This document shows, one piece after another, positions 1,354 to 23,100 of a DNA stretch of 64,000 nucleotides. A program made the position numbers and the translations under genes. The stretch lies in the NCBI GenBank assembly GCA_965227275.1, contig CBDDFU010000001.1:3076979-3140978 (forward strand), given 5' to 3'. The stretch comes from Pirellulales bacterium (GTDB taxonomy: Bacteria > Planctomycetota > Planctomycetia > Pirellulales > JAEUIK01). The notes under the pieces were generated by a model that worked only from the letters and a program-made list of their open reading frames with translations, ran no database searches and had not been told where the DNA came from. How positions within the stretch are numbered: the stretch's first letter is position 1; each line of letters begins with the position of its first letter.

Positions 1354-3654
1354 CTACGGCATCCATGACCAGACTTCGACCTTGAAGAATCGTTTCAGAT
1401 GCCTTGCCATAGCATTCCACAGCTTCTCGCGACGGATCACCACCCGGGCGTAACCGGTCATGTCGGGCAGCAGTGCCTCGGAGAGTGCTAACTGCGAGCC
1501 ATCGTCGATCGTGGCATACACCGGGACATAGTGAACCCGGGCCCGTTGCCAGGCCGATTCGGCCAACTGTTCGCGGTCGGTGCGGTAGGGGGCCAAAGTC
1601 AGTTCGCTGTCGTCCACGGCACGGATGGCGATCCGATCCACGAACGCCACTAACTGCCTGCCATCGAGGCCCGTAAATCGAAGCTTAACGGTTTGCCCCG
1701 GTTTGATAAGTGCCGCGGCATCTTCTGTCGCGGCGATTTCGACTTTCAGCTGAGAGGTGTCCTGCACCAGGGCGATCAGATCTCCCGGTTGAACATACTG
1801 CGTCACGCGTTCTTTTAAGTTTCCGGTAACCACCTGTCCGCCGCCGGGAGAAGAAATTGTGGTCAACTCGAGTTGCTTCTTGTAGTGATTCAACTCGGCT
1901 TCCATCGCCTGTACGCTTGCCTCGGCTGCCCGGATCTCTTCTTCTCTCGCGCCGGAGGTAAGCATTTGCAGCTCTTCGTTCGCGGCGGCAAGCACTTTCA
2001 CTGCTTCGTCATAGTCGTGTCGTGTGGCTTGAAGCCTGGCCTCGCTAACCGTATTACTCTCTGCAAGTTCCTTCAGCCGTTCGTGCTCGGTCATGTAGTA
2101 GTCGACCGAGACCTGTGACATTTCGACTTTGTCCCGGGCAACCTCAATGGTCTCGGGACGATTACCAGCATTGAGCAGATCGAGTTCGGCTTTGGCTTTC
2201 GCCAGATTTGCCTCGGCGATTTCGACGTTGGACAGTTGCTGATAATCGGCCAGGCGGGCTACCTCCTGACCGGCTTCGACATGTTCGCCCGAGTCGACGT
2301 TGATCTCGGCAAGTTGTCCCGCGATCGGCGCGCGCACCCCGTACTCAGCGATAGGCACCAGACGAAAGTCCCCACCCACTTCGATGTTGTAGGGCAAGAA
2401 GCCCAGCGAAACGATTCCCGCCAGGGTGGCCAGCCTTACCGGCCACCGCACATACCAGGGTCCGCCTCGATATAGCCAACGCAACGCTCGACTGAGCATC
2501 AGGATCCTCCAGAAGTCTTCATAATACCACCACAGAACCAACACGAGCGCGATGGCCAGGCCGATTCCTCCAAAGTAATTCGCCACAAGCGGACCGCCGA
2601 CAAAAATAACCAGCGCCAGGACCAATATTCGCCATAAATACACGCCTATCCCGTAGATGCGGAACCAAAATCGCTCGTCGCTCGAAAGTGGTTCTGGCGA
2701 AACGCGCAGGGTGATCCAGGCCGCGGTCTCAGCGAGGGCCCGCTCACGGAATTTGTAAATGTCGAGCCCGTAACTCAGCATCGCACAGCCCTCCATGGGG
2801 TTGAGGATGTTGAGTCGCAAGAACAGGCCGACCAGCGAAGGCACAATCAACACCGTCAGGCCGGCGTGCAACATCGTCTTCTGAGAGGTCATGCTCCAGC
2901 CGAGTATCACCAACGAGGAGATTACCAGCCGGCTCCAGATCCGCAGGCTGAGCATTGTCCAGCGTCCGGCGTTGGTCATGTAGATCATCGATTCGCCGGT
3001 ATTGCAGCCGAAGTAGGGCACCAGCTTGCGGTAAAACCGTAGCCCAAACGATTCGATCCGACCGCCGAGCCTGCGACAAGCCATCCCAGTGAGCAGGGCA
3101 TTGGGCAGGCTGATCAGGAGCAGCACCTCGCTGATCCAAAGAACGGCCACAGCTCCGAAACCGAGTTCCGAAACAACACTTTCCAGTGCATCGGGCAATT
3201 GCCAGAAGTTCTGAAACAAGGCCAGGGTGGCCAACGCCGTAAGTATCAAGATAGGCACGATACTCAGGGGATGAATCACCCATCCGAAGAGCATCGCCAG
3301 CACGTCGAAAAAGGCATTCAGCGGGGTATTGGTTCCCGGTTCCTGCATGGTGTGCGGCTTCTGGAACCGCTCGGCCACGGCTTCACCTTCGAGCAACCCA
3401 CGGGTGCGAAGTTGCTCGACGAATTCCTCGACGTATTGGTACGAGAGTTTGATGTTGTGCCGCTTGGCCACTCGCTCTCGAATCTGGCCGAGGTCGTGTT
3501 TTCCGTCGATCAGTTGGGTAAGCGACCGTTCTGCAAAGCCGAACTGAAACACCTCGCTGTTGCGTGGATCGCGCAGGATGAACTCATCGGGAGCCGTGCG
3601 AAGGATCTCCAGATCTGCCCGCAGTTTCGGCAGTTGTGCGCTGCTAGTGGCCAA
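1354..3654 (-). CDS. HlyD-family membrane-fusion (periplasmic adaptor) domain fused to an N-terminal soluble domain and a polytopic membrane domain
   Basis: The protein is 766 aa. The C-terminal roughly 330 aa have barrel-sandwich and coiled-coil features typical of HlyD/EmrA adaptors (INVDSGEHVEAGQEVARL ... long heptad region ... PGQTVKLRF). The N-terminal 100 aa are soluble, followed by about 6-8 hydrophobic helices. No HExxH is present. A weak NxxPxxG..LD stretch (NILNPMEGCAMLSYGLD) faintly recalls site-2 proteases. Confidence 0.75.
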   Translation of the reverse strand: MATSSAQLPKLRADLEILRTAPDEFILRDPRNSEVFQFGFAERSLTQLIDGKHDLGQIRERVAKRHNIKLSYQYVEEFVEQLRTRGLLEGEAVAERFQKPHTMQEPGTNTPLNAFFDVLAMLFGWVIHPLSIVPILILTALATLALFQNFWQLPDALESVVSELGFGAVAVLWISEVLLLISLPNALLTGMACRRLGGRIESFGLRFYRKLVPYFGCNTGESMIYMTNAGRWTMLSLRIWSRLVISSLVILGWSMTSQKTMLHAGLTVLIVPSLVGLFLRLNILNPMEGCAMLSYGLDIYKFRERALAETAAWITLRVSPEPLSSDERFWFRIYGIGVYLWRILVLALVIFVGGPLVANYFGGIGLAIALVLVLWWYYEDFWRILMLSRALRWLYRGGPWYVRWPVRLATLAGIVSLGFLPYNIEVGGDFRLVPIAEYGVRAPIAGQLAEINVDSGEHVEAGQEVARLADYQQLSNVEIAEANLAKAKAELDLLNAGNRPETIEVARDKVEMSQVSVDYYMTEHERLKELAESNTVSEARLQATRHDYDEAVKVLAAANEELQMLTSGAREEEIRAAEASVQAMEAELNHYKKQLELTTISSPGGGQVVTGNLKERVTQYVQPGDLIALVQDTSQLKVEIAATEDAAALIKPGQTVKLRFTGLDGRQLVAFVDRIAIRAVDDSELTLAPYRTDREQLAESAWQRARVHYVPVYATIDDGSQLALSEALLPDMTGYARVVIRREKLWNAMARHLKRFFKVEVWSWMP

Positions 3655-3841
3655 AGAATCGCGTCGCGAATCGACGCCCGGGGCTATTAACGGTTACCTG
3701 CATGACGAGGCCCTCTCACTTGAAGACAAGAGGGCCAAACACTCATGCTAAACCGGTACGAAGTGCGAACCAAGTAACAGTTGGTCCAGCCGCCAAGAGT
3801 AGGTCTGTCACGGGGACCGTGGGTGTTACAACCCTTAGAAT

Positions 3842-3860
3842 CGGGGCCTCAGGAGCCCCG
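3842..3860 (-). terminator. GC-rich hairpin immediately after the stop of the short ExbD-like gene
   Basis: On the minus strand the sequence is CGGGGC-TCCTGAG-GCCCCG, directly 3' of the stop at 3861..3863. The U-tract that follows is weak, so this could be a terminator or an attenuator before the HlyD-fusion gene. Confidence 0.3.
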
Positions 3861-4883
3861 CTATTGAGCCGACGACTTGGTCCCTCGGGGAGAGGCACCA
3901 ATTAACTGGCCCGATCTCATGGGACGACCTGCGGTTGGGAAACCCAGATCGTGCAGCTGTTGCTTCAGCTTCTGGTAGTTGCTGAATTCCTCGGGATAGG
4001 CCCATAGGGTGATCGTCGTACGGCGGGGATTGTGTTCCTTCAGCACGGCATGGAAAGCGGAATCGCCCTGCATTGCCCGCTCGAACTCTTCCCCAAGCTC
4101 ATCAGAATTCGGCAACAACTGCCATTGATCAACTCGATAGACCGACCCACCGGGGGCCCCCGCCAATTGTGCTTCCAGGCTGACCTGGCCTCGAACGATC
4201 TTGTAACGGGCCCGAAATCCTTTGATGGGCCCCATGATTTCGGTGACCGAATCTTGCGAGCGTAGTTTCCACAGGTGGTCTTGCCAGACGTCCTTGACGG
4301 CGGCGATCAACTCGTCGAAGGGAATGAACGTCACGCGACCGTTCTTCATTTGGAAGTGGATCTCCGTACCGTCGACCGATTGACTGATCGAGGTGGCATA
4401 GGTCTCGATCTCGATGGTCTGCTCGGTAACCGATTCGGCCCTGGCGATTTGCGAATTCAATCGTTCCTGTTCATCGATCGCGGTACTGAGTGCCTGTTGC
4501 AACTCGAGGTTTTGCTGGGCCTCCGCATCCAGCTCTTGGCGGCGGTTGGCGATTTCCTTACTGAGGTGTGCGGTAACCGTGGCCAGCTCGTCGCGTTCTT
4601 TCATGCGAATCAGCCGCGTGGCACGAAGTTGATCAACTTGACCGGCCAATTGCAGTGCGTCGCTGGTCATCGCAAGGGCTTGCTTTCGGGCATCGGCTAA
4701 CTCCTCGGGCTCCTTCGACTCGGTGACCGGTTTCGAGTCGGACACGATGACGTCTCTCGCCCGTACGCCGACCACCATCACCAGGATGATCAGAATTCCC
4801 ACGATGTTCGAGACGACATCGAGGAAAGAATCTGTTCCGAATCCCTCCTCGTCGATCTTTCGTTTCGTGCGTCGTTTCATCAT
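3861..4883 (-). CDS. ExbD/TolR-like protein with extended periplasmic coiled coil (short paralogue)
   Basis: The protein is 340 aa. After a basic N-terminus there is a single TM, SFLDVVSNIVGILIILVMVV, that matches the ExbD/TolR TM signature including the conserved Asp (LDVV). Next comes about 100 aa of heptad-rich coiled coil. The C-terminal part has an ExbD-like periplasmic fold signature (TTITLWAYPEEFSNYQKLKQQLHDLGF). Confidence 0.6.
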   Translation of the reverse strand: MMKRRTKRKIDEEGFGTDSFLDVVSNIVGILIILVMVVGVRARDVIVSDSKPVTESKEPEELADARKQALAMTSDALQLAGQVDQLRATRLIRMKERDELATVTAHLSKEIANRRQELDAEAQQNLELQQALSTAIDEQERLNSQIARAESVTEQTIEIETYATSISQSVDGTEIHFQMKNGRVTFIPFDELIAAVKDVWQDHLWKLRSQDSVTEIMGPIKGFRARYKIVRGQVSLEAQLAGAPGGSVYRVDQWQLLPNSDELGEEFERAMQGDSAFHAVLKEHNPRRTTITLWAYPEEFSNYQKLKQQLHDLGFPTAGRPMRSGQLIGASPRGTKSSAQ

Positions 4884-4921
4884 CGTGTGTTGGGTCTGGA
4901 GATACTACCGTGAATAGATGG

Positions 4922-6670
4922 CTAACGGGTGCGTTGCAATGGCGGGGTTCGCACCACGTTGCTGGCCTGATCGATTTTGATATCAAAACCACTGTTTTGC
5001 AGGAGGCGTGCCAGGTCGTTCACCCGCGCTTCGGCCCCGGCCTCGGGCTGCAGGCGCAACTCGGGTCGCCAGTGCATTCCGTCACCCGCAGTTCCCCAGG
5101 CATCCATGTGTTTGCGAACCGCCGATACCAGATCGTTTACGGAGTCTACTGTTTGGTTCCCCAAGGGAATGATCTTCCCCCGACGCTGCCCACGATCGTC
5201 GGGCATCACCACCAGGTGATCGGGGCGACAGTAGACGCGGATGGGTCGACGAATCCCGATGGACCCGCGGGATGATTTGTCGATTGCCCAGTCGCGACCT
5301 CGGCTCTCGGCCAAACTTTTTTGGGCTCTCAGGTCCGGGGTCCCTCCTTCCGTGTTCCCTTGAATGCTCGACGAACTGCCGCCCGCCACACTGCTCTGGC
5401 TTGCAAAGTCTCCACCGCTGCTTGGGTTGCTATTGCCACGCGGATCTCCCCCGCCACCAGCGTTCGCATCCAGAGCGCTGCTGCCCGAACCAAAGGAGGT
5501 GCTTCCACTCGCATCACCGGTATTCGACATGTCGGAACTTCCCGCAGACTGATTTGACCCCAACTCGGTTCCGAATTCGGAGCCTGTCCCTGCCGCTCCA
5601 CCGGAAGGAGAGCCGTTTCCGCCGCCGTAGTGGTCTCCGCGTCCTCCTCCAGAACCGCTACCATTACGACCGCTGCCGGAACCTCCGGGAGTCGCCTCGT
5701 CATCAAAGTCATCGAAATTGTCCGGACGGCTTCTGCCATAGTAGGAGGGGGCGATTTTCGCCAATCGCACTTGCCGTGCTCGTGCCCGTTCCACGGCCAA
5801 TCGTTGGGTAGCGGCCAGCTCAGGATCTTTCGGCGGGTACTTCAGATTCCAATCTTGATCGATCAGTTCGTAACCGAACTCTGAACCCCACGAGCGTAAA
5901 GCCTCGCGGGCGACCGAATACGCAATCACGCCGTCGGGCCGTACCAGGAAGAACGGATAGGGCTCGCCCATGGGGCCTTGTCCCTTTAGGGCATTTTCGG
6001 CATAGAATTCGTTGGCCGAACGCAACGCGGAAGCCAACGGATTGCTTGGGTCCAGGGGACCACGGAAATCTTCGACTGTCAGCCGAATACCCTCGGGCTG
6101 AATGATGATCGCGTCGGACCGACATTCGATGTAAATCGGGCGTCGCAATGTTTGATTGGCCCCCTCGTAGGGCACGATGGCATACGATATTTGCTGCTGG
6201 GCTGCGCGCTCTTCGGCCTCCTGCAGATTAACTTGCAGTTGTGCGATTTCGTTGCGGACCTCATTCAAACGGATCATGATGTCCTCACTTGCTGCCTGTT
6301 GCGACGGATCGACTTCCAGCGCCGCAAGCTGGCGCTCCAAGTCCTGCAATTGCTTGCGAAGCGTTCTGGAGTGGTCTTCAACATGGCTCAGCGCGAGCCG
6401 CTCTTCGGCCAGGGTCGAATTGATCTCTTCTAACTGGCGGCGAATATGGGCCTGCGTTTCTTGCAGCTTGCGACGTCGCTTCTCGAACTGCGCTTCCTCC
6501 TCTTCGGCCTCACGAAGTGCTGCTTCTTGCGTGTTGGCGGCTTGCACTTTGGCCTGCTGTGCCAATAGCACGAGCAACAAGATGAGGGCCCCCATCGTGC
6601 ATAGCAGGACCGCCAGAAACGGGAACATCGAGACGGCGGCAGCGGATTGCGTCCGTTGTCGTCGACTCAT
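4922..6670 (-). CDS. ExbD/TolR-like protein, long form, with coiled coil, two ExbD-like periplasmic domains and a Gly/Ser-rich linker
   Basis: The protein is 582 aa. The N-terminal TM, MFPFLAVLLCTMGALILLLVLL, resembles the ExbD TM but has no Asp. About 130 aa of coiled coil follow. The first ExbD-like domain contains PIYIECRSDAIIIQPEGIRL...FFLVRPDGVIAY. Then comes a roughly 170-aa G/S/N-rich low-complexity linker. A second copy of the domain contains PIRVYCRPDHLVVMPDD...VNDLVSAVRKHMDAWG. Its start overlaps the upstream gene stop by 4 nt (ATGA). Confidence 0.6.
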   Translation of the reverse strand: MSRRQRTQSAAAVSMFPFLAVLLCTMGALILLLVLLAQQAKVQAANTQEAALREAEEEEAQFEKRRRKLQETQAHIRRQLEEINSTLAEERLALSHVEDHSRTLRKQLQDLERQLAALEVDPSQQAASEDIMIRLNEVRNEIAQLQVNLQEAEERAAQQQISYAIVPYEGANQTLRRPIYIECRSDAIIIQPEGIRLTVEDFRGPLDPSNPLASALRSANEFYAENALKGQGPMGEPYPFFLVRPDGVIAYSVAREALRSWGSEFGYELIDQDWNLKYPPKDPELAATQRLAVERARARQVRLAKIAPSYYGRSRPDNFDDFDDEATPGGSGSGRNGSGSGGGRGDHYGGGNGSPSGGAAGTGSEFGTELGSNQSAGSSDMSNTGDASGSTSFGSGSSALDANAGGGGDPRGNSNPSSGGDFASQSSVAGGSSSSIQGNTEGGTPDLRAQKSLAESRGRDWAIDKSSRGSIGIRRPIRVYCRPDHLVVMPDDRGQRRGKIIPLGNQTVDSVNDLVSAVRKHMDAWGTAGDGMHWRPELRLQPEAGAEARVNDLARLLQNSGFDIKIDQASNVVRTPPLQRTR

Positions 6671-7977
6671 GCGGCCTTACCTTCCGGGGTCGAATGATCG
6701 ATTTCGATCTGTGGTTTTTCCAGCGCGGTCTTGCCCAAGCGGCCGTTGAGCAGGTGGATCGCGGCCGAAAGACTGAGCAAGGTCTCTTCGAAGTTGTGCG
6801 AGCCAGCCAGCGCCGAAAGGTTACGGTTCAGGGCATCTTCCAGCGATACGACTTGCCCGGTGGCTTGAATCACATCGGCCAGCATCGCCCCATGTCGGGC
6901 CAGTTCTTGTTGCTGAACAGCCGAGGCTTCCGCAGCGGCTGTAAGTTGACCTTGAACGCGCTCCCAATGTTCTGCCTGCGACGCAGTGAGCTGCTCGGCC
7001 CCGATGCTCAAGGTTTCCGACGCGGCTTGAAGCCCTTGATCCAGCGCGTTGCTAAGCGATGTTTCCAGTTGCTTCCCGGTAGCCCCCGAAAGTTGCGACC
7101 ATTGTTGATGCGCCGCGTCGATCGTGGTTCTCCAAAGCTCGGCCTGGCGTTCCACCATCCGCTCGGTGGCTGCGATCACGGCATTCGTCATATTCCGCAC
7201 GTTGGCCAGCTCGGGGTGCTCTTGTGGTTGTTGCTTCGGAAATCGTCCCAGTAGCTCCTCGGCAGTTCGCTCGTCGACGGCGGCCAGCAACCGTTGCTCA
7301 GTGTGATTGGTGACAAACTGCGCGAACATCAAAACGATCGACAGCCCCAAGGCCATGGCCGTGGTATCGAATGCCACGCCCAGACCCGCGGTCACCTCCG
7401 GCAAGGAAGACTCGAGGGCGTCCGGCGAGAGATTGGCGATGGCCAACGTGATACCAACTACCGTGCCCAGGAAGCCCAAAATCGGAATCGCCCATACGAT
7501 CAATCGCACCAGGCCGTAGTTCTCGTGAGCGCGTTCCGCGTCGAGATCGGATAGGTACTTCAGCTCCTCTTCCAAGTCGTCGGCACTTTGGTTACGCCAC
7601 ACGTGGTCAATGCCGGTGCGCACGCGACGAACAAGAAGCGTGTTTTTTTCCATCGGGGGAAGCGAATCCAGCTCTTCTAGCAGGTGCGGGCATTCGTCGA
7701 TGTTCTGCCCGCCCGCGGGAGCCTCTTCCAGGAGTGGATTTCCCACGAGAATGAACTGCCGCAGAGCCGCCAGCAGCTTAATGGCAAGGGCTGCCAGACC
7801 CACGAAGAACGCCGATGAGGCGACGTATTCGACGGGGTGCGAGCCGAAATAGCGAATGATAAAGGCACCGTGAATAGTTCCCGAGTGGATTGCCGCATAG
7901 AACGCCAGGGTGGCGATCGCGCCCCAGGTGACGGGGGATCGCAAGATGGCAGACGTAAGTCGATTAACACCGTTCAC
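6667..7977 (-). CDS. MotA/TolQ/ExbB-family proton-channel protein with a roughly 210-aa C-terminal helical tail
   Basis: The protein is 436 aa. The family signature sits in the penultimate TM (LIVWAIPILGFLGTVVGITLAIANL, compare TolQ/ExbB APFIGLFGTVWGIM). There are 3-4 TM helices with a cytoplasmic loop between them. The C-terminal 210 aa are Ala/Gln/Glu/Leu-rich and predicted helical or coiled coil, far longer than the tail of TolQ or ExbB. Confidence 0.8.
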   Translation of the reverse strand: MNGVNRLTSAILRSPVTWGAIATLAFYAAIHSGTIHGAFIIRYFGSHPVEYVASSAFFVGLAALAIKLLAALRQFILVGNPLLEEAPAGGQNIDECPHLLEELDSLPPMEKNTLLVRRVRTGIDHVWRNQSADDLEEELKYLSDLDAERAHENYGLVRLIVWAIPILGFLGTVVGITLAIANLSPDALESSLPEVTAGLGVAFDTTAMALGLSIVLMFAQFVTNHTEQRLLAAVDERTAEELLGRFPKQQPQEHPELANVRNMTNAVIAATERMVERQAELWRTTIDAAHQQWSQLSGATGKQLETSLSNALDQGLQAASETLSIGAEQLTASQAEHWERVQGQLTAAAEASAVQQQELARHGAMLADVIQATGQVVSLEDALNRNLSALAGSHNFEETLLSLSAAIHLLNGRLGKTALEKPQIEIDHSTPEGKAA

Positions 7978-8536
7978 GAAACAGATCCTCTTGGTCGAGT
8001 TCTCAACAATCCGCGCCCTGGTGGTCCCGCCACCGTCTTGCGCAAGGCGCTGGGCCGGCGGTCCGGTTCCGTCCTCAAAATCGTCAAATTCGGAGCTTTC
8101 GGTCCATGCAAATCGAAAAAATCGGCAAACTCTGCCACTTTGGATACGCCGTCTGACAGATGCAGTTGGCTCTACAGAGGGGGGTGGGCCGTGGCGGAAC
8201 CACAGTGAGTAGATTCTTGAGTTTTTTTGAAAACTTTGAATCGCCCGAGGGGTATTAAGTTCCAGACACGGTTATGGCGGCAGTGGGTCAGCTGTCAGCA
8301 GGGCGAAGCCCTTGCCCTGCCATAGCCGTTCGGCCCCAAACGGACGGTGACGCGGGGCGGGCGATATGGCACTGAGACTACCCCCACGGTCTACAGAGAG
8401 CCACGAATATCGTTCGCTCCGTGTCCCGTCTTTTTTTGTGCGCGCGATTTCTCACCGTCGCAATTCTCGCCTACATTGGCCCTGCACTTCTTGGAGCGGA
8501 CCCGATGCGAGATCTCTTGGCGAGCAATGAACTTTC

Positions 8537-9652
8537 ATGCAGTTGGACAACATCACCACCGGGGTCATCTACCGAAACCGCAAACCGCATGTGAATAGTG
8601 TTCAGGCATACTTTCCCTCGGTGGCTGTGCTACCCAATGGAGAGCTGCTGGCCGTGTACAGCTTGGGAGAAGCCTTCGAAGCGGTGAATCTCCACGTGCA
8701 CGTTGCCCGCTCTCGCGATGGGGGACTCACATGGAACGACGAAGGGCGGCTTTGCCCCGCGACCAGCGATCGACTCTCTTCAGACTTCGCGCGGTTGGCA
8801 ATCACGCCCACAGGCGAACTGGTCGCAAATATCTTGCGGAGCGATCGAACGGAACATCCCAACGAAGGACTTTCGAATCCGGCCAACATGGGATTCGTGC
8901 CCACGGAGTTGCTCGTTACACGATCGACGGACCACGGTCAGTCCTGGAGTGAGCTTTCCGTCGTCGTCCCGCCGCTGTCCGGGTGTGAATTCGAGATGTG
9001 TTCGCCGCTGGTGATGTTGGAGGACGGCCGCTGGTTGTGGCCCACATCGTTGTGGCGAGATTGGCAGGGCAACCTGGCTCACGACTATCAGATGGTAGCC
9101 CTGGTTTCGCACGACCAAGGAAACACCTGGTCCGAGCATCAAACGGTGATGCATAGCCCCCGCGGGGAAGTGTTGTACTGGGAGTCAAAGATTCTTGAGC
9201 TGGCAGACCGGCGATTGCTGGCCGTGGCGTGGGCGTACGATGAACAAACCCGACGCGACCTTCCCAATCAATACGCAATGAGTACCGATGGCGGCGATAG
9301 GTGGAGTTCGCCTCGTTCGACGGAACTTTCCGGGCAGACACTGACTCCGTTGCTGCTGGACGACGGCAGGATTTTGAATGTTTACCGCCGCATCGACCAG
9401 CCAGGGTTATGGGCCTGCGTTTCCCGACTCGAAGGTGACCAATGGGTGAATGAGGGTCAGCAGCCGCTGTGGGGTCAACGAGGAGGGCAGGGCACGACGA
9501 GCACAGGGGAGAATATGGTCGAGAACTTCAATACGCTGAAGTTCGGGGCACCCAGCCTCACAAGGTTGCCCGACGGTCGTGTATTCTGCGCCTTTTGGTG
9601 CTACGAAGAGATGATCAGCATCATCCGTTGGTATTCGTTTGCGGTCAGTTAG
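8537..9652 (+). CDS. BNR/Asp-box repeat glycosyl hydrolase (sialidase-like beta-propeller)
   Basis: Four SxDxGxTW Asp-box motifs are present (SRDGGLTW, STDHGQSW, SHDQGNTW, STDGGDRW). The protein is 371 aa. Confidence 0.75.
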   Translation: MQLDNITTGVIYRNRKPHVNSVQAYFPSVAVLPNGELLAVYSLGEAFEAVNLHVHVARSRDGGLTWNDEGRLCPATSDRLSSDFARLAITPTGELVANILRSDRTEHPNEGLSNPANMGFVPTELLVTRSTDHGQSWSELSVVVPPLSGCEFEMCSPLVMLEDGRWLWPTSLWRDWQGNLAHDYQMVALVSHDQGNTWSEHQTVMHSPRGEVLYWESKILELADRRLLAVAWAYDEQTRRDLPNQYAMSTDGGDRWSSPRSTELSGQTLTPLLLDDGRILNVYRRIDQPGLWACVSRLEGDQWVNEGQQPLWGQRGGQGTTSTGENMVENFNTLKFGAPSLTRLPDGRVFCAFWCYEEMISIIRWYSFAVS

Positions 9653-11771
9653 CCGCGGTTTCGGGAGGCTGCCGCACCGCGATTTGTTTTTCCGGCCAAT
9701 TCAACTTTTTAGCAACTTCCAGCGGGTAGCTCCAATGGTCGGAGTCTTTGTCATACAGCCGAACCTGGGTGTTCTCGGCTGCCATGGCCACGGCCTGGGG
9801 CGTATCGAAGAATCGCATCACGTTCAGCAGCGTGGGACCGTCGCGATGCGAAGCCGGCAGTTTCCATAAATCGAGCCGCGCGACGTCCGGTTCGAACAGC
9901 GATGCGTACAGGGCGACGCCCGCCATCTGTTCGTGGGCCTGGATCCATAGCGGCACGGTGTTCAGTTCATCGATCGAGCGCAATGCCTGCGCGGCCCGCC
10001 GCACGTCCCAGACCTGCATCCCGTCGCGAGCTTGACCCAGCAACATGAAGCGGCGGCGAATCTGCGTCTGCCCTTTGGTCGATTTATCCCACGCGGTGGG
10101 CCCCACACCACGAGGAGCAACGTACGCCATGGCCCACGGTTGTGATTGCAGCATGTTTCGCAGTTGAGCGAAGGACACATCGTCAGGCGGACCCAGGGCT
10201 TCGCCTTCCAACGCATCGGCAAACCCTACCTGCATCGTGTCGGCCCATTCTCGCCACCGCGCGTCGTCCAGAACATTCAGCACGACCAATTCGGGGTTCT
10301 TCAGTTCTGCCGAGTGCAGCAGATACAGCTTCAAGCGAACGGGGCCCTGCGACGTGAAATCGAAACAGCGCAGCAGCAGTCCCTCTCGTTCGATCGAACA
10401 AACTGATTCGAGGGACAACGGTTCTGCATCATCTGCCGGCCAGGCGGCGAAGGACTTCTCACGAAGCACTTCCATCCACCTGTTGCGTTGTTGTTCCCAT
10501 GCGGAGTCATCCCCAACCACCTCAGGCGGTGTGGCTCGTGTGACGAATGTTTCTTGAATGTCAGCATTCACGCTGTCTTCGGGCAGTTCTGCAAAGACCT
10601 TCAAGTCCTCCGGTTCAAATACCTTTTCGGCCGGCCGTGCGTTCGGGGCTTCTTTGCCTTTCAGGTACCGATTGAACCAGACAAACGCGTTGGCCCTCAG
10701 TTCTTGCGTATCCTGGTGCGGGCCAGCCGTGATGTTGAGGCCCAACTGGTCGGCCGCCCCGTAGAGCCGGTAGATGTGCCGAACCTTTTCGTGCAGACGA
10801 ACCACACCTTCCAATGGAAAGATTCCATCTTTGTCCGTGTTGGCAATTAACAGCGGACGAGGAGCGACCATGGCGGCCACCTGAGCGTAATCCCAACGAT
10901 GCGTATTCACCATGAACATGCAGTCGCAATGCCCTGAGATCACGCCGTCGACCACATGGTTTTCCAAATCGGTGATGCCAGCCACGGGCACCGCGACTTT
11001 AATCCGCTGGTCGATGGCCGCGATCCACCAACTGTAGGCCCCACCACCAGAGCGCCCGGTGACGCCCATGCGTTGGGTATCCACTTCCTCGCGAGTTTCG
11101 AGATAGTCCAACGCGCGGATACAGTTCCAGGCTTCCACGCCCGCGGGGGTGTACCCGTGGGAGAGCCACCACCACATGTTCTCGCGGTAGGTGCCGTGAT
11201 GCAGTCCCTCGATTTCGCCAAGCTGCAGGGTGTCGATCGTCAGACAGACGTACCCATGCCTCGCGAACCACACACCGTGATGGTGATAGTGCACCTTGTT
11301 TCCGAAGCTGACACCGTTGTGCGTCACCCGACCGTGACCGCACACATACAGAATCGTGGGCGCCGGGCCATCATGTTCCTTGGGCAGATAGAGATTCCCT
11401 GTGACATACAAGCCGGGCCGTGACTGGAACTGAATCTTCTCGACAACGAAATCGTCCCGCTCGACGCGACCGGTGATCACCGGCTGCAGCGGTGTTTTCT
11501 CGGGCAGCGGGTCGAGCCCGAGCATTTCGTTGAGTTGGGCTTCGTACTCCGCCCGACGCGAGGTCCAGTCTTCCAGCGTCTTCACATCGGTCAGACACGA
11601 GTCGGCCAGTTTTTGCGTTTCCTGGCGAAAGTACTCGGCGATCATCGCGTCGCCGCGATCCGTATTGAGAACGACGGACTGCTTCTCTTCCGTCTCTTGG
11701 GCCAAGGTCAGCATGACGGTACTAAGAATCAGGACGCAGCTTGCTGCCCAAGAACGCCCAAGCATCTGCAT
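9645..11771 (-). CDS. secreted two-domain alpha/beta-hydrolase (acetyl-xylan-esterase / peptidase-S9-like)
   Basis: The GxSxG nucleophile elbow GVTGRSGGGAYSW sits in the N-terminal half. The start was chosen at the internal Met (MQMLGRSWAASCVLILSTVMLTLAQE, a signal peptide) rather than the ORF-track start at 11891. The convergent 3' ends of this gene and the BNR gene overlap by 8 nt. Confidence 0.7.
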   Translation of the reverse strand: MQMLGRSWAASCVLILSTVMLTLAQETEEKQSVVLNTDRGDAMIAEYFRQETQKLADSCLTDVKTLEDWTSRRAEYEAQLNEMLGLDPLPEKTPLQPVITGRVERDDFVVEKIQFQSRPGLYVTGNLYLPKEHDGPAPTILYVCGHGRVTHNGVSFGNKVHYHHHGVWFARHGYVCLTIDTLQLGEIEGLHHGTYRENMWWWLSHGYTPAGVEAWNCIRALDYLETREEVDTQRMGVTGRSGGGAYSWWIAAIDQRIKVAVPVAGITDLENHVVDGVISGHCDCMFMVNTHRWDYAQVAAMVAPRPLLIANTDKDGIFPLEGVVRLHEKVRHIYRLYGAADQLGLNITAGPHQDTQELRANAFVWFNRYLKGKEAPNARPAEKVFEPEDLKVFAELPEDSVNADIQETFVTRATPPEVVGDDSAWEQQRNRWMEVLREKSFAAWPADDAEPLSLESVCSIEREGLLLRCFDFTSQGPVRLKLYLLHSAELKNPELVVLNVLDDARWREWADTMQVGFADALEGEALGPPDDVSFAQLRNMLQSQPWAMAYVAPRGVGPTAWDKSTKGQTQIRRRFMLLGQARDGMQVWDVRRAAQALRSIDELNTVPLWIQAHEQMAGVALYASLFEPDVARLDLWKLPASHRDGPTLLNVMRFFDTPQAVAMAAENTQVRLYDKDSDHWSYPLEVAKKLNWPEKQIAVRQPPETAAN

Positions 11772-11923
11772 CGCGATGGTCCTCTCGTTGCGCGGAAGTC
11801 GATACCAAAGGGTTATCGTGAACCGAGCGACGCGAGAAAGCAAGCAGTGAGCATGTTGCGGCAGACTGTTTGGTATCTGACGCATGAACATGAGTGGATC
11901 GCGGAGAGATACTTGGACGCCAC

Positions 11924-12100
11924 GGCCGGCTTGTCCAACGGTACAGCATTCGCATCAAAACAACTCGACAGAATGTGTCGTGTGCCCCGAGGTTTTCACC
12001 CATCGGCGCACCCTGTCGAGATCACGTGGCTGCCGTGATCAATCGTCGCAATCCGCTGACGCTTACTGCTGCCCCTCACCAATGGACAAGCCAGCCGTGG
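11924..12100. repeat. degenerate relative of the same repeat family, copy C
   Basis: The left arm is GGCCGGCTTGTCCAACGG and the right arm is CACCAATGGACAAGCCAGCCGTGG. It shares an exact 13-mer TGGACAAGCCAGC and the 10-mer GGCTTGTCCA with copies A and B. The spacer is longer (about 135 bp) and has its own hairpin ATCACGTGGCTGCCGTGAT. Confidence 0.45.
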
Positions 12101-12221
12101 CATCCAGGTACCACAAGCGTGCTCATGACTCTTCATGAAAGCCCCCGGAATGCCGAAGTGCGGCACTCCGGAGGCGTAATCGCCTTGGTAAGCCCGATCG
12201 CGGGAGATCGGGTGGGTACCA

Positions 12222-12500
12222 CTAGTAGCAATATCGGTGATGATGGCGATAAGGTACGGGCGGTCCATAGAACCCCGGGTACCCGACCACTCGCCGCGGG
12301 GGATAGAACGAACCGTAGTATCTCGGAGGTGCATAAGCCCGATATCCATAGGCATACCCGGGCGAACGAGCATAGTAGCCTGGATATCCGGCGGTGACTG
12401 AAACGCCCCAGCCGGCGGCTTTCGCCGACTTGGTGGTGGCAACGGATGCTAAGCCCAACACCGCTACGACCAGGATTGCCCGACGAACTGACTTCTTCAT
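12222..12500 (-). CDS. small secreted Tyr/Gly/Pro-rich protein
   Basis: The protein is 92 aa. It has a signal peptide (MKKSVRRAILVVAVLGLASVATTKSAKA) and a mature part dominated by Y, G, P and R (GYPGYYARSPGYAYGYRAYAPPRYYGSFYPP...). A strong GGAGG Shine-Dalgarno sits 8 nt upstream of the ATG on the minus strand. Confidence 0.55.
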   Translation of the reverse strand: MKKSVRRAILVVAVLGLASVATTKSAKAAGWGVSVTAGYPGYYARSPGYAYGYRAYAPPRYYGSFYPPRRVVGYPGFYGPPVPYRHHHRYCY

Positions 12501-12843
12501 CGACTTATCCTCCCAAAGTGGAAGGCGACGCCGAGTCGATTGTTCCGACCCGCTTCGGCTGCAAGAGTGCCGCTGCTACCTCTTCTGCTTCGACACAGAC
12601 ACGCATCGCCCTGAATAACCCGAACCGACGACGTGTCGATTCATGGCAACACCAAGGATTTGCATGTTGCGTGCCGATTTCAGGAGTTTGGAAATCGAAG
12701 ATCGCGCAAGCTGTTCAACAGCAAGCAGATGAAACCGCGGCGATGCACCTTCGCCGGTTTTGATAGCAACGCGTAAATGCGCCGCTCAATGACGACAACC
12801 CGTATCGCAAACGCGACACCCAACCTTGCGACAGTGCAAATCC

Positions 12844-14322
12844 CTAGAGCAAGGGGCTGAATAGTTGTGCCGTCGATTCCAGAAGTTTCAACGACACCGA
12901 GCGATTCTCGAACTCTTCGTAGTCCAACTCACGGCTATTCTCCAAGTCCTGCTCGAACAGCGTCGCAAGCTCGCTGCACAGCGCGGCGCTGCGAACCGAG
13001 CAACTTACTTCGAAGTTCAGGCGGAAACTTCGAATGTCGATGTTAGCGCTGCCCACCACGGCCAGGTCGTCGTCGAACACCGCCGACTTGGCGTGCAGGT
13101 AGCAGGGCTGATACTCATAGATCCGCACGCCTGCCCCCAACAACTCCGGGTAATAGGAACGCGACGCCCAATGCGGAATCCGCGAGTCGCCAAACTCGGG
13201 CAACAGCACCCTTACGTCGACCCCGCGATAGACGGCGGTTCTTAAGGCCGCACGGATGCTGGGGTTGGGAATGAGATACGGCGTGGTGATCCAAACGCGA
13301 CGGCTCGCCTGCGTCAGCGCGATAAACAACGCGTCGTGAGTCAGGTTGTGTCGGGTATGAGGCCCGCTGGCCACAACGCCACACACGGCATTGTTGTCCA
13401 CTCCCCAATCCTTGTCTTTCTCTGCGGTGAAACAACCGAAGTAACGCCTGGTGGTGAGGTCTTCTTCGGTGGTGAAGAACCAGTCGTCGGCGAACACTTC
13501 CTGCAGTTGGTCGACCACGGGGCCGCGCATTTCCAGGGCCGTGTCGTGCCAGTCGTGGGTGTACTCGTCGCCGATGTTCAAACCTCCGACGATGCCACGA
13601 CAACCGTCGGCGATGACCAGCTTGCGGTGATTGCGAAAATTCCAGTAACGATTCCGCTTGAAGACGTGCGTCGGTAGAAAGACACCCACCTTGCCGCCCG
13701 CTTCGACCAGGGGACGCATCAGCCGGCCGCCAGCGCGAGGACTACCCACCGCATCGCACAGTACACGAACTTCGACACCTTGCTTGACCTTTTCGATCAA
13801 CAGGTCTCGAAAATGTCGCCCGGTGGCGTCGTCGTTCCAGATATAGAACAGGATGTGCAAATGGTTGGTTGCCGATTCAATGGCCGCTTCGATCGCCGGA
13901 TACGCCTCGTCCGCGTCGCGAAGCAAACGCACGCTGTTGTTGAACGTTGGCGGAAACACCCATTGTGCCTCGTCGGGGGGTAATCGTCGCAGGGAGAGCA
14001 GTTCCCAGCTTGCCTCGGGTAGGGACGGCAGGTCGCTGCGCAGCCGAGAAAGTTCGTGGGCGATCCGATCGGTCGACTTCCGTCGTCGTCGTCGCTTGCG
14101 GGTGAGGTGCTTGCGACCAAGAACCCACCACAAGATCAGGCCCAACAGCGGCAGCGCGAATAGTATCAGTAGCCAGGCAATCGCCGACTGAGGATGCCCC
14201 CGACGTTGGAGCAACACCGAGGGAATGCTGATGATGGCCAACAGGTACGTGCCGGTGACCAATACCGACCACCAACTGGGCTCCCATCCCAGTTGCGAGG
14301 CGATATCGAACCAGTCAGCCAT
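12844..14322 (-). CDS. cls: cardiolipin synthase (PLD superfamily)
   Basis: There are two N-terminal TM helices and two HKD motifs (HRKLVIADG and LHAKSAVFDDD). Confidence 0.85.
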   Translation of the reverse strand: MADWFDIASQLGWEPSWWSVLVTGTYLLAIISIPSVLLQRRGHPQSAIAWLLILFALPLLGLILWWVLGRKHLTRKRRRRRKSTDRIAHELSRLRSDLPSLPEASWELLSLRRLPPDEAQWVFPPTFNNSVRLLRDADEAYPAIEAAIESATNHLHILFYIWNDDATGRHFRDLLIEKVKQGVEVRVLCDAVGSPRAGGRLMRPLVEAGGKVGVFLPTHVFKRNRYWNFRNHRKLVIADGCRGIVGGLNIGDEYTHDWHDTALEMRGPVVDQLQEVFADDWFFTTEEDLTTRRYFGCFTAEKDKDWGVDNNAVCGVVASGPHTRHNLTHDALFIALTQASRRVWITTPYLIPNPSIRAALRTAVYRGVDVRVLLPEFGDSRIPHWASRSYYPELLGAGVRIYEYQPCYLHAKSAVFDDDLAVVGSANIDIRSFRLNFEVSCSVRSAALCSELATLFEQDLENSRELDYEEFENRSVSLKLLESTAQLFSPLL

Positions 14323-17912: not shown

Positions 17913-18725
17913 GTGGCAAAGTTCTCAACTCAATTCTCCGCCTTGCTTCTGATATTCACGCTCATGGCGACGGGTTGCCAGTGGGTACCCAAGTCGCAGT
18001 ATGCCGCGGCCGAAACCAAGAACCGCCAACTGGTCGAGCAGGTTCGGGCCCAACAGGCCGAAATCGAAACACTCAACGCCCATCGACATCGGGTAGAAGA
18101 TCAACTCGTGGCCACCGAAGATCAATTGGCCAAACTTTCCGAACAGGCGGGAGTTGATCGATCGCTGTTGTCCGACTTTCGTCGGCAGGGTCAGTTGATG
18201 AACGATGCCTTGCGTGGAGCACGCGGCGGCGTTCCTTCTCCGGTCGAGAGACGCCTGGCCGAGCTTGCCCAACGTTATCCGAACTTGCGATACGATCCGC
18301 AAACCGGGGTGAGCAAACTGCAAACCGATTTGCTGTTCGACACTGGGGACGCCAACCTGCAGCCGAACTCCCGTCGGGCACTCGACGAATTGGCCGACAT
18401 TCTCACGACCAACGAAGGTCAGGATCTGAGAATCGTCGTGGCCGGGCATACCGACGATCGGCAGATTTCCAAACAACCCACCCGTGAGCAGTATCCGGAC
18501 AATTGGCATCTCAGCACGGCCCGGAGCCTGGCGGTCTGCGAATACCTCAACGCTCGCGGAGTCCGTGGCGACCGCATGGGGGTGGCCGGGTTCGCCGAAC
18601 ACCAGCCGATTGCGGCGAATGCATCGCCCGAAAAGCGGCAAAAGAACCGCCGGGTCGAAGTATTCCTCATGGCCCCCGACACCCCAGTTGTAGGGTGGAC
18701 CGACACCATGACGAGCCTGTACTAA
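17913..18725 (+). CDS. OmpA/MotB-family peptidoglycan-binding lipoprotein
   Basis: It has a lipobox LMATGC, an N-terminal coiled coil, and a C-terminal OmpA-like domain (AGHTDD...NWHLSTARSLAV...RRVEVFL). Confidence 0.8.
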   Translation: MAKFSTQFSALLLIFTLMATGCQWVPKSQYAAAETKNRQLVEQVRAQQAEIETLNAHRHRVEDQLVATEDQLAKLSEQAGVDRSLLSDFRRQGQLMNDALRGARGGVPSPVERRLAELAQRYPNLRYDPQTGVSKLQTDLLFDTGDANLQPNSRRALDELADILTTNEGQDLRIVVAGHTDDRQISKQPTREQYPDNWHLSTARSLAVCEYLNARGVRGDRMGVAGFAEHQPIAANASPEKRQKNRRVEVFLMAPDTPVVGWTDTMTSLY

Positions 18726-20165: not shown

Positions 20166-23100
20166 TTGAGAACCTTTCTTAAACCCCCTGACGTGACCAT
20201 GGCTACGAACACCATCTCGGTTCAACCCGATCCGATGCCCGAAGTGCAGTCGACCCCTCAGCGGGGCCGGTCGCAGCCCCCGGGCGTTGTGCGGCAGATC
20301 GTCGAGGCATTGGCATCGCTGAAACTAACGGTGACTCTGTTTGCGATGGCCATCGTGATTGTGTTTGCCGGCACCCTGGCACAGGTCGACCAGGACATCT
20401 GGCAGGTCATCGACAACTACTTCCGTGTGCCATTTGCGTGGATTGACTTTCAGGTCTTCTTCCCGCCTTCGTTCTTTCCCAGCCAACCGCAGATTCCCGG
20501 CGGGATCTATTTCCCCGGTGGCTGGCTGATTGGCGCGGCCATGGCGGTCAATTTGCTGGCGGCTCATGGCATTCGATTCAAGGTCCAGGCCAAAGGCGCA
20601 CGATTGCGATGGGGCGTGGCTACGATCGCTGTCGGCTGCGTGCTGACCTGGCTGGTGGTCGTCAGCGGTTCGAATACCGAAGGCATCTACGAGGCGGCCG
20701 GGGCCGGATGGGATACCGTCTGGGACTGGCTCAAGTTGGGGCTCGTGGGCGTCTGGATCGCGTTGGCCTACGTGCTTTGGGGAACGTCTCGTGAAAAAGC
20801 GTTGGAGCGGTGGTCGATCATCGGCGGTCTGCTGGCGGTAGCGGCCGTGTTGGCCTATCTCATCATCGGGGGCGATGCTGCCCGAATCAGCGATTCCTCG
20901 ATGCGGATCCTATGGCAACTCATCAAGGGCACGGCAGCCGGCGTTGTGCTGTTGGCCGGTTGTGTCATGGTTTTCAAGAAACGGGCCGGCATCGTCCTGC
21001 TGCACGGTGGCATTGGCCTGATGATGTTCAGCGAGTTTCTCGTGGGCATTCAGGCCGTCGAAGGGCAGATGGTCATCGCGGAAGGTGAAACGGTGAACTT
21101 CGTGCAGGATATCCGCGAAGTGGAATTGGCCGTCATCGATCGCTCGAACCCCGAGCATGACGATGTGGTTGTTGTGTCCGAGCGTGTGTTGAAGGGTAAA
21201 GAGCCCATCAAGAGCCCGCTGCTGCCGTTTACGATCGACGTGCAGCAATTCATGGACAACTCGGTAGGCCATAGGTTGAAGGATGGCGAGTCGAACTCCG
21301 CAACAGCGGGCTTTGGCCTCAATTGGGTTGTCGAGGAAGTCCGACCGGGGGCGGGTACTGATTCAGGCGGCCAAGTCGATGTTGCCTCGGCCTATATCAA
21401 GCTCGCACCGACCGACGGGTCGCCTGCGTTGGGCACCTTTTTGGCGAGCCAAGAACTCAAGCCACAGCCGGTAACCGTGGGCAACAAAACCTACGACATC
21501 GCGCTACGTTTCAAGCGAACCTATAAGCCGTATTCTTTGGAACTGATTGACGTTCGCAAAGACGATTACATCGGGACATCGACACCAAGCAACTATTCCT
21601 CCGACGTGCAGTTGGTCGATGGCTCGAGAAACGTCGATCGCAAAGTAAAAATTTGGATGAACAACCCGCTACGGTTCGCGGGAGAGACGTTCTACCAAAG
21701 CGGTTATCGGTCCGCCGCCGACTCGCCTGACGGGATCGAGGTAACTACCTTGACCGTCGTGACGAACCTGGGCTGGATGATCCCTTATGTAGGCTGCATG
21801 ATCGTGGCCACGGGGATGCTGGCTCAATTCCTGCAGACATTGCTGCGGTTTCTGCAACGGTGGCGAACCGAAAAAACATCGACCACCGAGGTGGCTGAGA
21901 CCAAAGAGGTCGGTTCGTTCAGTTGGACGATTGTCATCGTGCCGGCAGTTGTCTTCGGGTTGGCCGCCATGCTGCTTGGTCGCGCGGCCATGGTGCCGAG
22001 CCCAGCGGAGAACGAGCCCAACCTGTACGAGTTCGGCAAAGTGCCGGTGGTGTACAAGGGCCGCACCAAGCCGATCGATACGCTGGCCCGCAATAGTTTG
22101 CGCATTCTTTCGCATCGCGAAACCTTCAAGGATGCCGACGGGAAGACGCAGCCCGCCATTCGTTGGATGGCCGACCTGCTGGCCAAGCCCGAGACGGCGC
22201 TCGACTACAACGTCATCCGCATCGACAATCTCGAGTTGCTCGAAACCTTGGGGCTTACTCGCAGAGAGACCCACCGCTACGCCTTGTCCGAGTTCTTCGA
22301 TCACATGGACGAACTCAGCAAACAGGCAGCTTTGGCGCGCAAGACCGACCCCAACCAGCTAACCACCTATCAGAAGAGCGTCGTGGCCCTGGAAGAGAAG
22401 ATCGGGCTGGTCGATCTTCTACTGCAATCGTTCAGCCTGCCACAGATCCGCTCGGAGAACGTCAAAGAGGATCTGCTGACCACGGTCCAGCGGCAGGAAA
22501 TGCTCTCGGGTCGCGAGCCGCCGCTGCTGATTCCGCCGATGGACGAGAAGGATACGTGGAATACCTACGCCTCGGGTTGGACGAAGGATTTCATCCGTCT
22601 GAATCTCATCCAGGACGACAACATTAATCCGGCCACCAACGCGGTGACTGAAATGTTGGCCTCTTACGCGGACGGCAACGCCAAAGAGTTCAACGAGCAC
22701 GTGAGTGATTATCGGGCGATGGTTGCCGGCAACGACTTTGCGACGGTGAACCCTCGCAAGGTGAACTTCGAAGCGTACTTCAACCATGCGGCCCCGTTCT
22801 TCTATGCATCCTGGTTGTATCTTCTGGCGTTCGTCTTGATCGCCTGCTCGTGGCTGGGGTGGTCGCAAACCCTAGGGCGGGCAGCCTTCTGGCTGATCGT
22901 GTTCACGTTCTTCGTCCACACGGCAGCACTGTTGGCAAGAATTTACATCTCGGGCAGACCCCCGGTGACGAACCTTTACTCCTCGGCCGTGTTTATCGGT
23001 TGGGGCTGCGTGATCTTCGGGCTCGTCTTCGAACGGGTCTACCGTCTGGGCGTCGGGAACGTGATTGCCGCCGTGGCTGGGTTTGCCACTTTATTGATCG

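Follow-up and report, generated by a model that had tools for sequence, protein, structure and literature searches.

A stretch of 64,000 nucleotides from a Pirellulales bacterium (Planctomycetota; GenBank assembly GCA_965227275.1, contig CBDDFU010000001.1; hereafter, the window) encodes on its minus strand a compact trio of genes, designated here g1, g2, and g3, which specify a channel subunit of the MotA/TolQ/ExbB family and two different membrane proteins with long predicted stalks (Table 1). We hold it to be somewhat better than an even proposition that the trio is a vertically inherited, housekeeping member, characteristic of Pirellulales, of the superfamily of 5:2 ion-driven rotary motors (e.g., MotAB, ExbBD, TolQR, ZorAB, and GldLM), with a 5:1:1 composition and a heterodimeric axle spanning the periplasm. 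Ion-driven 5:2 motors power flagella, the Ton and Tol systems, gliding, type IX secretion, and Zorya defense, and each new branch of them has revealed a new use of the membrane potential outside the cytoplasm. The branch described here is conserved across a whole order of Planctomycetota, a phylum whose envelope and FtsZ-independent mode of division are little understood; for two of the three proteins, there is no Pfam or NCBIfam model; and the branch displays an unusual combination of a ZorA-like cytoplasmic tail with a putative periplasm-spanning stalk, along with two axle proteins of which one is apparently ion carrying. The initial annotation of the window had joined these genes to a fourth, g4, in a single proton motive force (PMF)-driven device. 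The four open reading frames (ORFs) lie exactly where it had placed them, and its description of the first three genes stood for the most part, whereas g4 proved to lie outside the conserved unit. Our analysis further brought out four features that it had overlooked, namely, the paralogy of g2 and g3, the lone aspartate of g3, the nearness of g1 to type II ZorA, and an M50-like domain in g4.

Conservation and gene neighborhood of the trio

Searches recovered 1666 homologs of g1, 2245 of g2, and 526 of g3, and g4 likewise has a large family (see below); because each has so many homologs, the four ORFs are real genes rather than chance ORFs. When one genome per species was scanned with a g3 profile, relatives turned up in at least 552 species genomes. 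Among the matches listed, 80 of 80 belong to Planctomycetota, the names given being Pirellulales, Pirellulaceae, Thermoguttaceae, Pirellula, Thermogutta, and Anammoximicrobium. When gene order was counted in loci with at least 4.2 kb of sequence upstream of g3 (n = 59), g3 was preceded by same-strand g1 and g2 in 54 of them. The tight coupling that had been proposed for these genes from their junctions in the window, a 4-nt ATGA overlap between g1 and g2 and a 38-bp gap between g2 and g3, is supported, and the unit is strongly conserved. The 206-bp spacer that follows g3 contains a hairpin, as annotated; more precisely, there is a GC-rich hairpin immediately after the g3 stop codon, a second strong hairpin farther on, and a terminator-like hairpin with a T-rich tail, the last being a pattern match from a consensus scan. 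The folding energy of the spacer is −80.2 kcal/mol (z = −2.15 versus shuffled sequence), and it likely marks the end of the transcription unit of the trio. No RNA known to Rfam was recognized in the window.

Upstream of the trio lie queD (31 loci) and queC (20 loci), and the neighborhoods of the related loci contained no defense genes. The downstream neighbors vary (e.g., a RoxA-like cytochrome, a FliL-like protein, or an aminotransferase), and clustering of the flanking ORFs yielded no conserved downstream partner, with only the upstream queC and queD recurring. The neighbors in the window are queC, queD, and genes for a PLD-family protein, an esterase, and a BNR-repeat protein, and none has a PADLOC defense match. 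In the window, the BNR-repeat protein, the 748-aa esterase/peptidase-like protein, and the PLD-family protein (positions 8537 to 14322) stand between queC/queD and g1, and a close relative, locus L084, is arranged alike; in other loci, queC/queD directly abut the trio. Since this order-wide synteny differs from the patchy distribution of defense islands, we interpret the trio as a vertically conserved housekeeping unit, and its conservation and context speak for a role in the envelope, not in defense. As annotated, no ABC ATPase, RND pump, or TonB partner is encoded near the cluster, and no ExbD was found there either. Extending these searches, we found no ExbD- or TonB-like ORF in the window or in ~1 Mb of flanking sequence from 83 related loci (L001 to L083) and no gene for TolB, Pal, or a TonB/TolA-like protein in the operon or the flanks of these loci.

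The channel subunit and its ZorA-like tail

The MotA_ExbB domain of Pfam (PF01618) matches residues 116 to 229 of g1 (E = 8.3 × 10−13; 48.6 bits against a cutoff of 22.9), and this region displays the pore-type motifs LGFLGTVVG and AFDTTA, with the channel signature GFLGTVVGI at residues 168 to 176. Both this signature and the long tail had been annotated correctly, and the profile match identifies g1 as a true member of the MotA/TolQ/ExbB channel family. Hydropathy analysis gave strong segments at residues 52 to 70, 163 to 181, and 201 to 223 and a weaker one at ~15 to 33. Across 32 homologs, from which the conservation of g1 was determined, no variation occurs at P165, G168, G171, T172, or T206, and T205 is retained in at least 90%; from motif comparison, we presume that these threonines correspond to the pore threonines of ExbB and TolQ. 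Most homologs are ~436 aa long, and the 207-aa C-terminal tail shows high conservation of its length as well as its sequence, down to a distal motif (ATGQV..LE..LNRNL.ALAGA.NFEET..SL.AAI.LL..RL) and an invariant Ala-Ala at the extreme C terminus.

Among the PADLOC models, only those of ZorA, chiefly ZorA2, matched g1 (PDLC00635; residues 149 to 386; E = 5.4 × 10−12), and ZorA2 matched 32 of 32 members of the g1 family (best E = 1.2 × 10−14). The sole match of the g1 profile to PDB sequences at E ≤ 0.001 was 8vvi_F (E = 7 × 10−4; profile positions 168 to 365), the type II ZorA of Sulfuricurvum kujiense (PDB code 8VVI), whose C termini bundle into a cytoplasmic tail. By these searches, the nearest modeled or structured relatives of g1 are type II ZorA proteins, albeit through a weak match, and g1 appears closer to them than to ExbB/TolQ. 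Nonetheless, the NCBIfam ZorA2 model scored only 18.5 bits against a cutoff of 700, and since the scores are far under the family thresholds, we regard g1 as ZorA-like in design yet not as a ZorA.

The family-wide ZorA2 matches, the inclusion of part of the tail in the PDB match, and the conservation of the tail would suit a Zorya-like antiphage or envelope damage sensor, the g1 tail of which relays a periplasmic signal to effectors encoded elsewhere. We consider this very improbable. Besides the low scores, g2 and g3 contain no OmpA/MotB domain of the ZorB type (the ZorB1 model gave only E = 0.13), none of ZorB, ZorC, ZorD, ZorE, ZorF, and ZorG is encoded beside the trio, and its order-wide housekeeping synteny is the opposite of what is seen in defense islands. 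Membership in Zorya itself is ruled out by the subthreshold ZorA2 scores, the absence of a ZorB-type OmpA domain, and the lack of effector genes nearby. The trio resembles ZorAB in that g1 combines a MotA-type core with a long helical C-terminal tail. It differs in the extra ~150-aa N-terminal part of g1, in having two different, long-stalked partners without the OmpA-like peptidoglycan-binding domain of ZorB, and in being a conserved chromosomal system with housekeeping synteny instead of part of a mobile defense island.

Architecture and paralogy of g2 and g3

The initial annotation had described g2 and g3 as divergent ExbD/TolR-like proteins, each with an N-terminal membrane helix, a coiled-coil insert, and an ExbD-like periplasmic domain. 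The first two elements were borne out: hydropathy analysis shows one strongly hydrophobic N-terminal helix apiece, and long helices are predicted to follow it. In the AlphaFold2 models (predicted local distance difference test scores of 82.5 for g3 and 71 for g2), g2 forms a single long helix from residue 16 to 158, which includes the membrane helix and has one break at residues 121 to 124. It is followed by an α/β domain (D1), a helix at residues 283 to 306, a disordered Gly/Ser-rich linker, and a second α/β domain (D2), with D1 and D2 sharing an RRPIYIECR motif (87% in hhalign). The predicted stalk of g3 consists of helices spanning residues 60 to 117 and 120 to 151 and leads to an α/β head. 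Both g2 domains and the core of the head of g3 are modeled with the order strand-strand-strand-helix-strand-helix-strand, which is that of the periplasmic domain of ExbD/TolR. The g3 family ends in a conserved G(T/S)KS(S/A)AQ motif (GTKSSAQ in the window). The conserved extreme C termini of both g1 and g3 hint at a step of partner recognition, processing, or sorting.

The membrane helices are among the best-conserved parts of both proteins, reading SLFPFLAVLxCTMGALILLL in g2 and DSFLDVVxNIVGILIILV in g3. Profile-profile comparison of the two families with hhalign aligned them over the membrane helix and stalk (94.4%; E = 9 × 10−8) and, to a lesser degree, over the membrane helix alone (75%; E = 2.6 × 10−5), placing PFLAVL of g2 in register with SFLDVV of g3. 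On the strength of these alignments, g2 and g3 are paralogs.

The ExbD-like periplasmic domain was not substantiated. Neither Pfam ExbD (PF02472) nor the NCBIfam ExbD/TolR models matched g2 or g3 at E ≤ 1; Pfam ExbD matched 0 of 38 g3 relatives; and a purpose-made ExbD hidden Markov model reached E = 0.7 at best. We then compared g2 and g3 by hhalign with a reference alignment of 12 ExbD/TolR sequences (ten annotated plasmid genes together with Escherichia coli ExbD and TolR). Canonical ExbD genes, sought as a local reference, were absent from the window and the related loci. The helix and heads aligned in register, with ExbD carrying TPFIDVMLVLLIIF at the position equivalent to the g2/g3 helix motif, but the alignments were insignificant (E = 0.04 to 0.8; probability of ≤1.3%), and comparison with E. 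coli ExbD and TolR taken singly gave nothing significant either. A profile search of PDB sequences for ExbD/TolR kinship returned coiled-coil noise only. Pfam, NCBIfam, and PADLOC assigned g2 and g3 to no family, the only matches being compositional coiled-coil ones to SMC, JetC, and LmuB, and Pfam detected no vWA domain in either. We treat the two proteins as ExbD/TolR-like in design, with weak support at the level of the fold.

An asymmetric aspartate and covarying stalks

The membrane helix of g3 has an aspartate (Asp22) followed by an asparagine (Asn26), and both are retained in 70 of 70 genomes. At the corresponding position of g2 (Ala20 in the window), where ExbD, TolR, and MotB have aspartate, alanine is found in 41 of 46 genomes, valine in 2, glycine in 1, and aspartate in 2. 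In 64 genomes, we also measured the stalks, counting the residues that separate the membrane helix motif from the first strand of the head. Their lengths, 129 to 167 residues in g2 (mean, 138) and 142 to 166 in g3 (mean, 149), covary (Pearson coefficient, 0.83; Spearman coefficient, 0.73; both without phylogenetic correction), and the Pearson coefficient is 0.71 once the outlier locus L066 (167 and 166 residues) is dropped. The g2 linker, which ranges from 100 to 459 residues, shows no such positive covariation (rho = −0.17 with the g2 stalk and −0.27 with the g3 stalk). In L066 (g2, positions 6169 to 7983; g3, positions 8001 to 9062), both stalks are longer, exceeding the family means by ~29 residues in g2 and ~17 in g3, and this locus constitutes a natural experiment for the idea of paired stalks or a periplasmic ruler. 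Taken together, the covariation, the paralogy, the coupling of the genes, and the loss of the aspartate from g2 lead us to favor one g2 and one g3 protein as a heterodimeric axle and stalk.

A different division of labor, on the plan of TolQRA or ExbBD-TonB, would have a g3 homodimer as the axle within a g1 pentamer, with g2 standing outside the ring as a TolA/TonB-like transducer that reaches the outer membrane. The three-part layout of g2 (a membrane helix, an extended or disordered region, and a globular C-terminal domain) is that of TolA and TonB, its linker is hypervariable in length like their domain II, it lacks the aspartate, and a variant subclade has a histidine in the g2 helix (LLHAF). 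However, the g2 helix is in register with that of its paralog g3, because of which we would expect the two to occupy the same kind of binding site. Moreover, g2 has no SHLS motif, its stalk covaries in length with that of g3, and the order of secondary structure elements in its heads is unlike that of the C-terminal domains of TonB and TolA. On this evidence, we judge a transducer role of g2 outside the ring to be unlikely.

A putative motor with a heterodimeric axle

In the 5:1:1 motor that we favor, five g1 subunits would ring one g2 helix and one g3 helix, and ion flow by way of Asp22 of g3 would drive the relative rotation of ring and axle. The helices of g2 and g3 would continue outward as a paired stalk of ~90 to 120 residues, which, if helical, would measure ~14 to 17 nm and would bring the TolR-like α/β heads up to the peptidoglycan or the outer membrane. 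The variable disordered linker of g2, together with D2, could extend farther outward to an outer partner, while the ZorA-like tail of g1 would reach into the cytoplasm and act there as a regulatory arm or a further output. Force or a signal might then cross the envelope without a separate TonB or TolA, in a manner resembling the proposed transpore-helix transducers (PMC12204202).

Several points weigh against this proposal. We infer the stoichiometry, the insertion of g2 into the pore, and the rotation, each by analogy; the homology of g2 and g3 to ExbD/TolR is statistically unsupported; and the covariation of the stalks could stem from a periplasm of the same width for both, with no physical pairing. 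We know of no experimentally characterized precedent for a motor with a single aspartate. Furthermore, the partnership of the three genes is not absolute, since in 5 of the 59 loci no g1 precedes the pair in the same orientation: it was undetected in L021, L030, L056, and L077 and is present as an inverted copy in L048. L038 also has no detectable g1. Loci L030, L038, and L056 have the order queC-queD-g2-g3 (positions 5801 to 8957 in L030), and their g2 helix reads FSFLDAMICTMGAL..LLHAF, with both an aspartate and a histidine. The g1 gene of this subclade could lie at another site in these genomes, or the system could operate in another way.

With kinship to ExbD/TolR statistically unsupported and one partner devoid of the aspartate, the trio could also be no motor at all: g1 would be a mere ion channel or scaffold, g2 and g3 would be structural periplasmic coiled coils such as envelope spacers, and the colocation of the genes would reflect assembly. 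Yet neither the aspartate of g3 nor the polar motifs of the g1 pore helices vary, the g2 helix shows extreme conservation, and such constancy is the hallmark of the ion-coupled core in every characterized member of the superfamily. We therefore find a purely structural role improbable.

A bolder version of the rotary reading is that the trio founds a new class of motor. Its 5:1:1 axle would be obligatorily asymmetric, with the ion-binding aspartate on one pore helix; a rigid heterodimeric coiled-coil shaft would move rotation or tension over ~15 nm of planctomycetal periplasm; and the ZorA-like pentameric tail would report to the cytoplasm. Such a machine could serve as a Pirellulales-specific housekeeping device of the envelope, for example, in tethering or constricting the outer membrane during FtsZ-less budding or in a surface structure or uptake function, and it might be the chromosomal lineage behind the ZorA of type II Zorya. 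We regard this as possible, though we would not count on it. If true, the asymmetric axle would put to the test the rotary model, which assumes two alternating aspartate sites, and the trio would be a housekeeping counterpart to Zorya.

Comparison with other motors of the superfamily

The conclusion of the initial annotation that the locus fits no described system stood up to the comparison: there is no ZorB, ZorC, ZorD, or ZorE, no TolB, Pal, or TonB, and no OmpA domain of the MotB type. ExbB and TolQ are not known to have a tail like that of g1. The trio also departs from TolQRA and ExbBD-TonB in the 90 to 120 aa of stalk between membrane helix and head, in an operon without an SHLS-type TonB/TolA, TolB, or Pal, and in a g2 helix without SHLS. 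Closer in gene content is Myxococcus AglR-AglQ-AglS, which likewise unites one MotA-like gene with those for two different TolR/MotB-like single-pass partners. AglQ and AglS are short TolR-like proteins, and no glt-type genes were seen near the trio. Both AglQ and AglS keep the aspartate (PMC9389320), as opposed to only one of the partners in the trio, both of which are long stalked.

We found no description of the planctomycetal trio in the literature, and the nearest concept is that of the transpore-helix (TPH) vWA force transducers proposed in 2025 in Mol Biol Evol (PMC12204202), which include a cluster from the Planctomycetes-Verrucomicrobia-Chlamydiae (PVC) group with a tolQ-like gene and two heterologous tolR-like genes. 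There, a heterologous single-pass pair is proposed to insert into the pore of a TolQ-like pentamer and to span the periplasm, with no separate TonB or TolA (PMC12204202). The trio shares with these the TolQ-like gene and the heterologous single-pass pair without a separate TolR/ExbD, but the TPH proteins end in vWA domains and have the aspartate in both partners, whereas the trio has stalks with TolR-like heads, a partner lacking the aspartate, and a ZorA-like tail on g1. In architecture, it also recalls GldL-GldM and PorL-PorM, in which an inner membrane ring with a cytoplasmic tail is combined with an elongated dimeric shaft that spans the periplasm (see PMC9389320). There is no sequence relationship to these, and the shaft of GldM is homodimeric and built of globular domains, unlike the putative heterodimeric coiled coil of the trio. 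The trio falls within the known superfamily of MotA/ExbB-type motors, but it is not a member of the Zorya, Tol-Pal, Ton, or AglRQS systems.

The adjoining M50-like/HlyD fusion

The C-terminal HlyD-type adaptor that had been annotated in g4 behind a polytopic membrane domain is evident from Pfam and NCBIfam matches and from hydropathy. The adaptor (residues ~440 to 682) is matched by PF13437 (E = 7 × 10−16) and NF002939 (E = 1.9 × 10−30), with HlyD_3 and HlyD_D23 exceeding their Pfam cutoffs (59.3 bits versus 22.2 and 52.8 versus 30, respectively). The polytopic part (residues 20 to 376) matches NF041824, the model of the daptide intramembrane metalloprotease, at E = 2.1 × 10−16 (60 bits against a cutoff of 300), and the N terminus (residues ~22 to 88) is weakly PqqD/RiPP recognition element (RRE)-like (PqqD; E = 0.025). 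Related to the NF041824 family, g4 belongs to a set of proteins that fuse an M50/site-2-protease-like domain with an HlyD domain, and it has their full-length architecture. In g4 and its closer relatives, the HExxH motif is lost, SLPNALLTG standing in place of LHEFAHGLT, and the same replacement is seen in two orthologs; distant full-length relatives retain LHEFAHGLTCKRFGG, with the motif LHEFAHG(LT). A search of 1.84 billion representative proteins recovered 420 representatives of the g4 family at E ≤ 1 × 10−30, of which at least 100 are full length (~740 to 800 aa). LHExxHG is clear in 27 of the 121 listed relatives of at least 650 aa (a 28th regular expression match, P0431, is not genuine) and absent from the rest, including the best 40 of the 121. 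From these comparisons, we identify the membrane domain of g4 as a degenerate site-2-protease-like (M50-like) domain.

In the four-gene device of the initial annotation, g4 would be a periplasmic adaptor energized by the motor. Its adjoining position on the same strand in the window and in three other loci (L084, L004, and L095) and the lack of an ABC or RND partner encoded beside it are in keeping with this. Conservation of the neighborhood, which had been suggested as a check, was found for g1, g2, and g3 in the 54 loci noted above but not for g4. Among loci with at least 3 kb of sequence downstream of g3 (n = 62), g4 follows the trio in 2 (L084 and L004), both from close relatives, and is absent from the other 60; one further ortholog came from metagenomes. 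The orthologs are 77% (L084), 52% (L004), and 74% (L095) identical to g4. Moreover, hairpins intervene between g3 and g4, the other downstream neighbors of the trio differ, and the large g4 family is independent of the trio. With g4 thus outside the conserved unit, the proposal of a trans-envelope device with an HlyD adaptor falls, and we deem it scarcely credible that the four genes form one machine. On synteny, we reject g4 as a machine part, and its distribution indicates that it is a lineage-specific neighbor, a separate degenerate protease-adaptor protein that needs no motor partner. Downstream of g4, the remaining ~1.3 kb (positions 1 to 1353) contains no ORF of more than 113 aa and no Pfam match; the equivalent region of L084 has genes for a 220-aa protein, a FecR-like protein, and an ECF sigma factor on the opposite strand.

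Table 1. Positions in the window of the trio, the adjoining gene g4, and their component features
Feature	Positions	Strand	Description
g1	6667-7977	minus	436 aa; MotA/TolQ/ExbB-family channel subunit, presumed pentameric ring
g1 C-terminal tail	6670-7290	minus	Residues 230-436; presumably cytoplasmic, Ala/Leu/Glu/Gln rich, resembles tail of type II ZorA
g1 extreme C terminus	6670-6675	minus	Ala-Ala
g1/g2 junction	6667-6670	minus	ATGA overlap
g2	4922-6670	minus	582 aa; first axle/stalk protein (putative)
g2 membrane helix	6557-6625	minus	Residues 16-38
g2 D1	5840-6187	minus	Residues 162-277; α/β domain
g2 linker	5327-5695	minus	Residues 326-448; disordered, Gly/Ser rich
g2 D2	4973-5260	minus	Residues 471-566; α/β domain
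g2-g3 gap	4884-4921	minus	38 bp
g3	3861-4883	minus	340 aa (339 from second Met); second axle/stalk protein (putative)
g3 membrane helix	4755-4832	minus	Residues 18-43
g3 Asp22	4818-4820	minus	Candidate ion-binding residue
g3 stalk	4431-4706	minus	Residues 60-151; predicted helices
g3 head	3894-4367	minus	Residues 173-330; α/β domain
g3 C terminus	3864-3884	minus	GTKSSAQ
g3-g4 spacer	3655-3860	minus	206 bp, hairpins
GC-rich hairpin	3842-3860		Immediately after g3 stop codon
Second strong hairpin	3709-3736
Terminator-like hairpin	3661-3677		T-rich tail; consensus pattern match
g4	1354-3654	minus	766 aa; adjoins conserved module, not a member
g4 polytopic domain	2527-3597	minus	Residues 20-376; M50-like, degenerate by sequence
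g4 HlyD-type adaptor	1609-2337	minus	Residues ~440-682

Other genes and observations

About 10 kb from g1, the plus strand of the window encodes (positions 17913 to 18725) a 270-aa lipoprotein (lipobox, LMATGC) that contains both a coiled coil and a peptidoglycan-binding domain of the OmpA family. In at least 9 loci (L007, L009, L014, L017, L028, L030, L056, L075, and L077), the opposite strand encodes an ortholog 3 to 4 kb upstream of the trio, and the true frequency may exceed this, as several copies are cut by the edge of the locus. This OmpA-like lipoprotein could be a Pal-like partner of the trio, or its presence could be mere synteny. One g1 homolog of 83% identity (P0003) is filed in NCBI and UniRef under the dinoflagellate Durusdinium trenchii. 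It most likely represents bacterial contamination of a eukaryotic assembly and suggests that relatives of the source organism live with algal cultures. Finally, the window encodes on its plus strand (positions 20166 to 23732) a 1188-aa ORF that joins a ResB-like domain and a CcsA-like domain, both of cytochrome c assembly.

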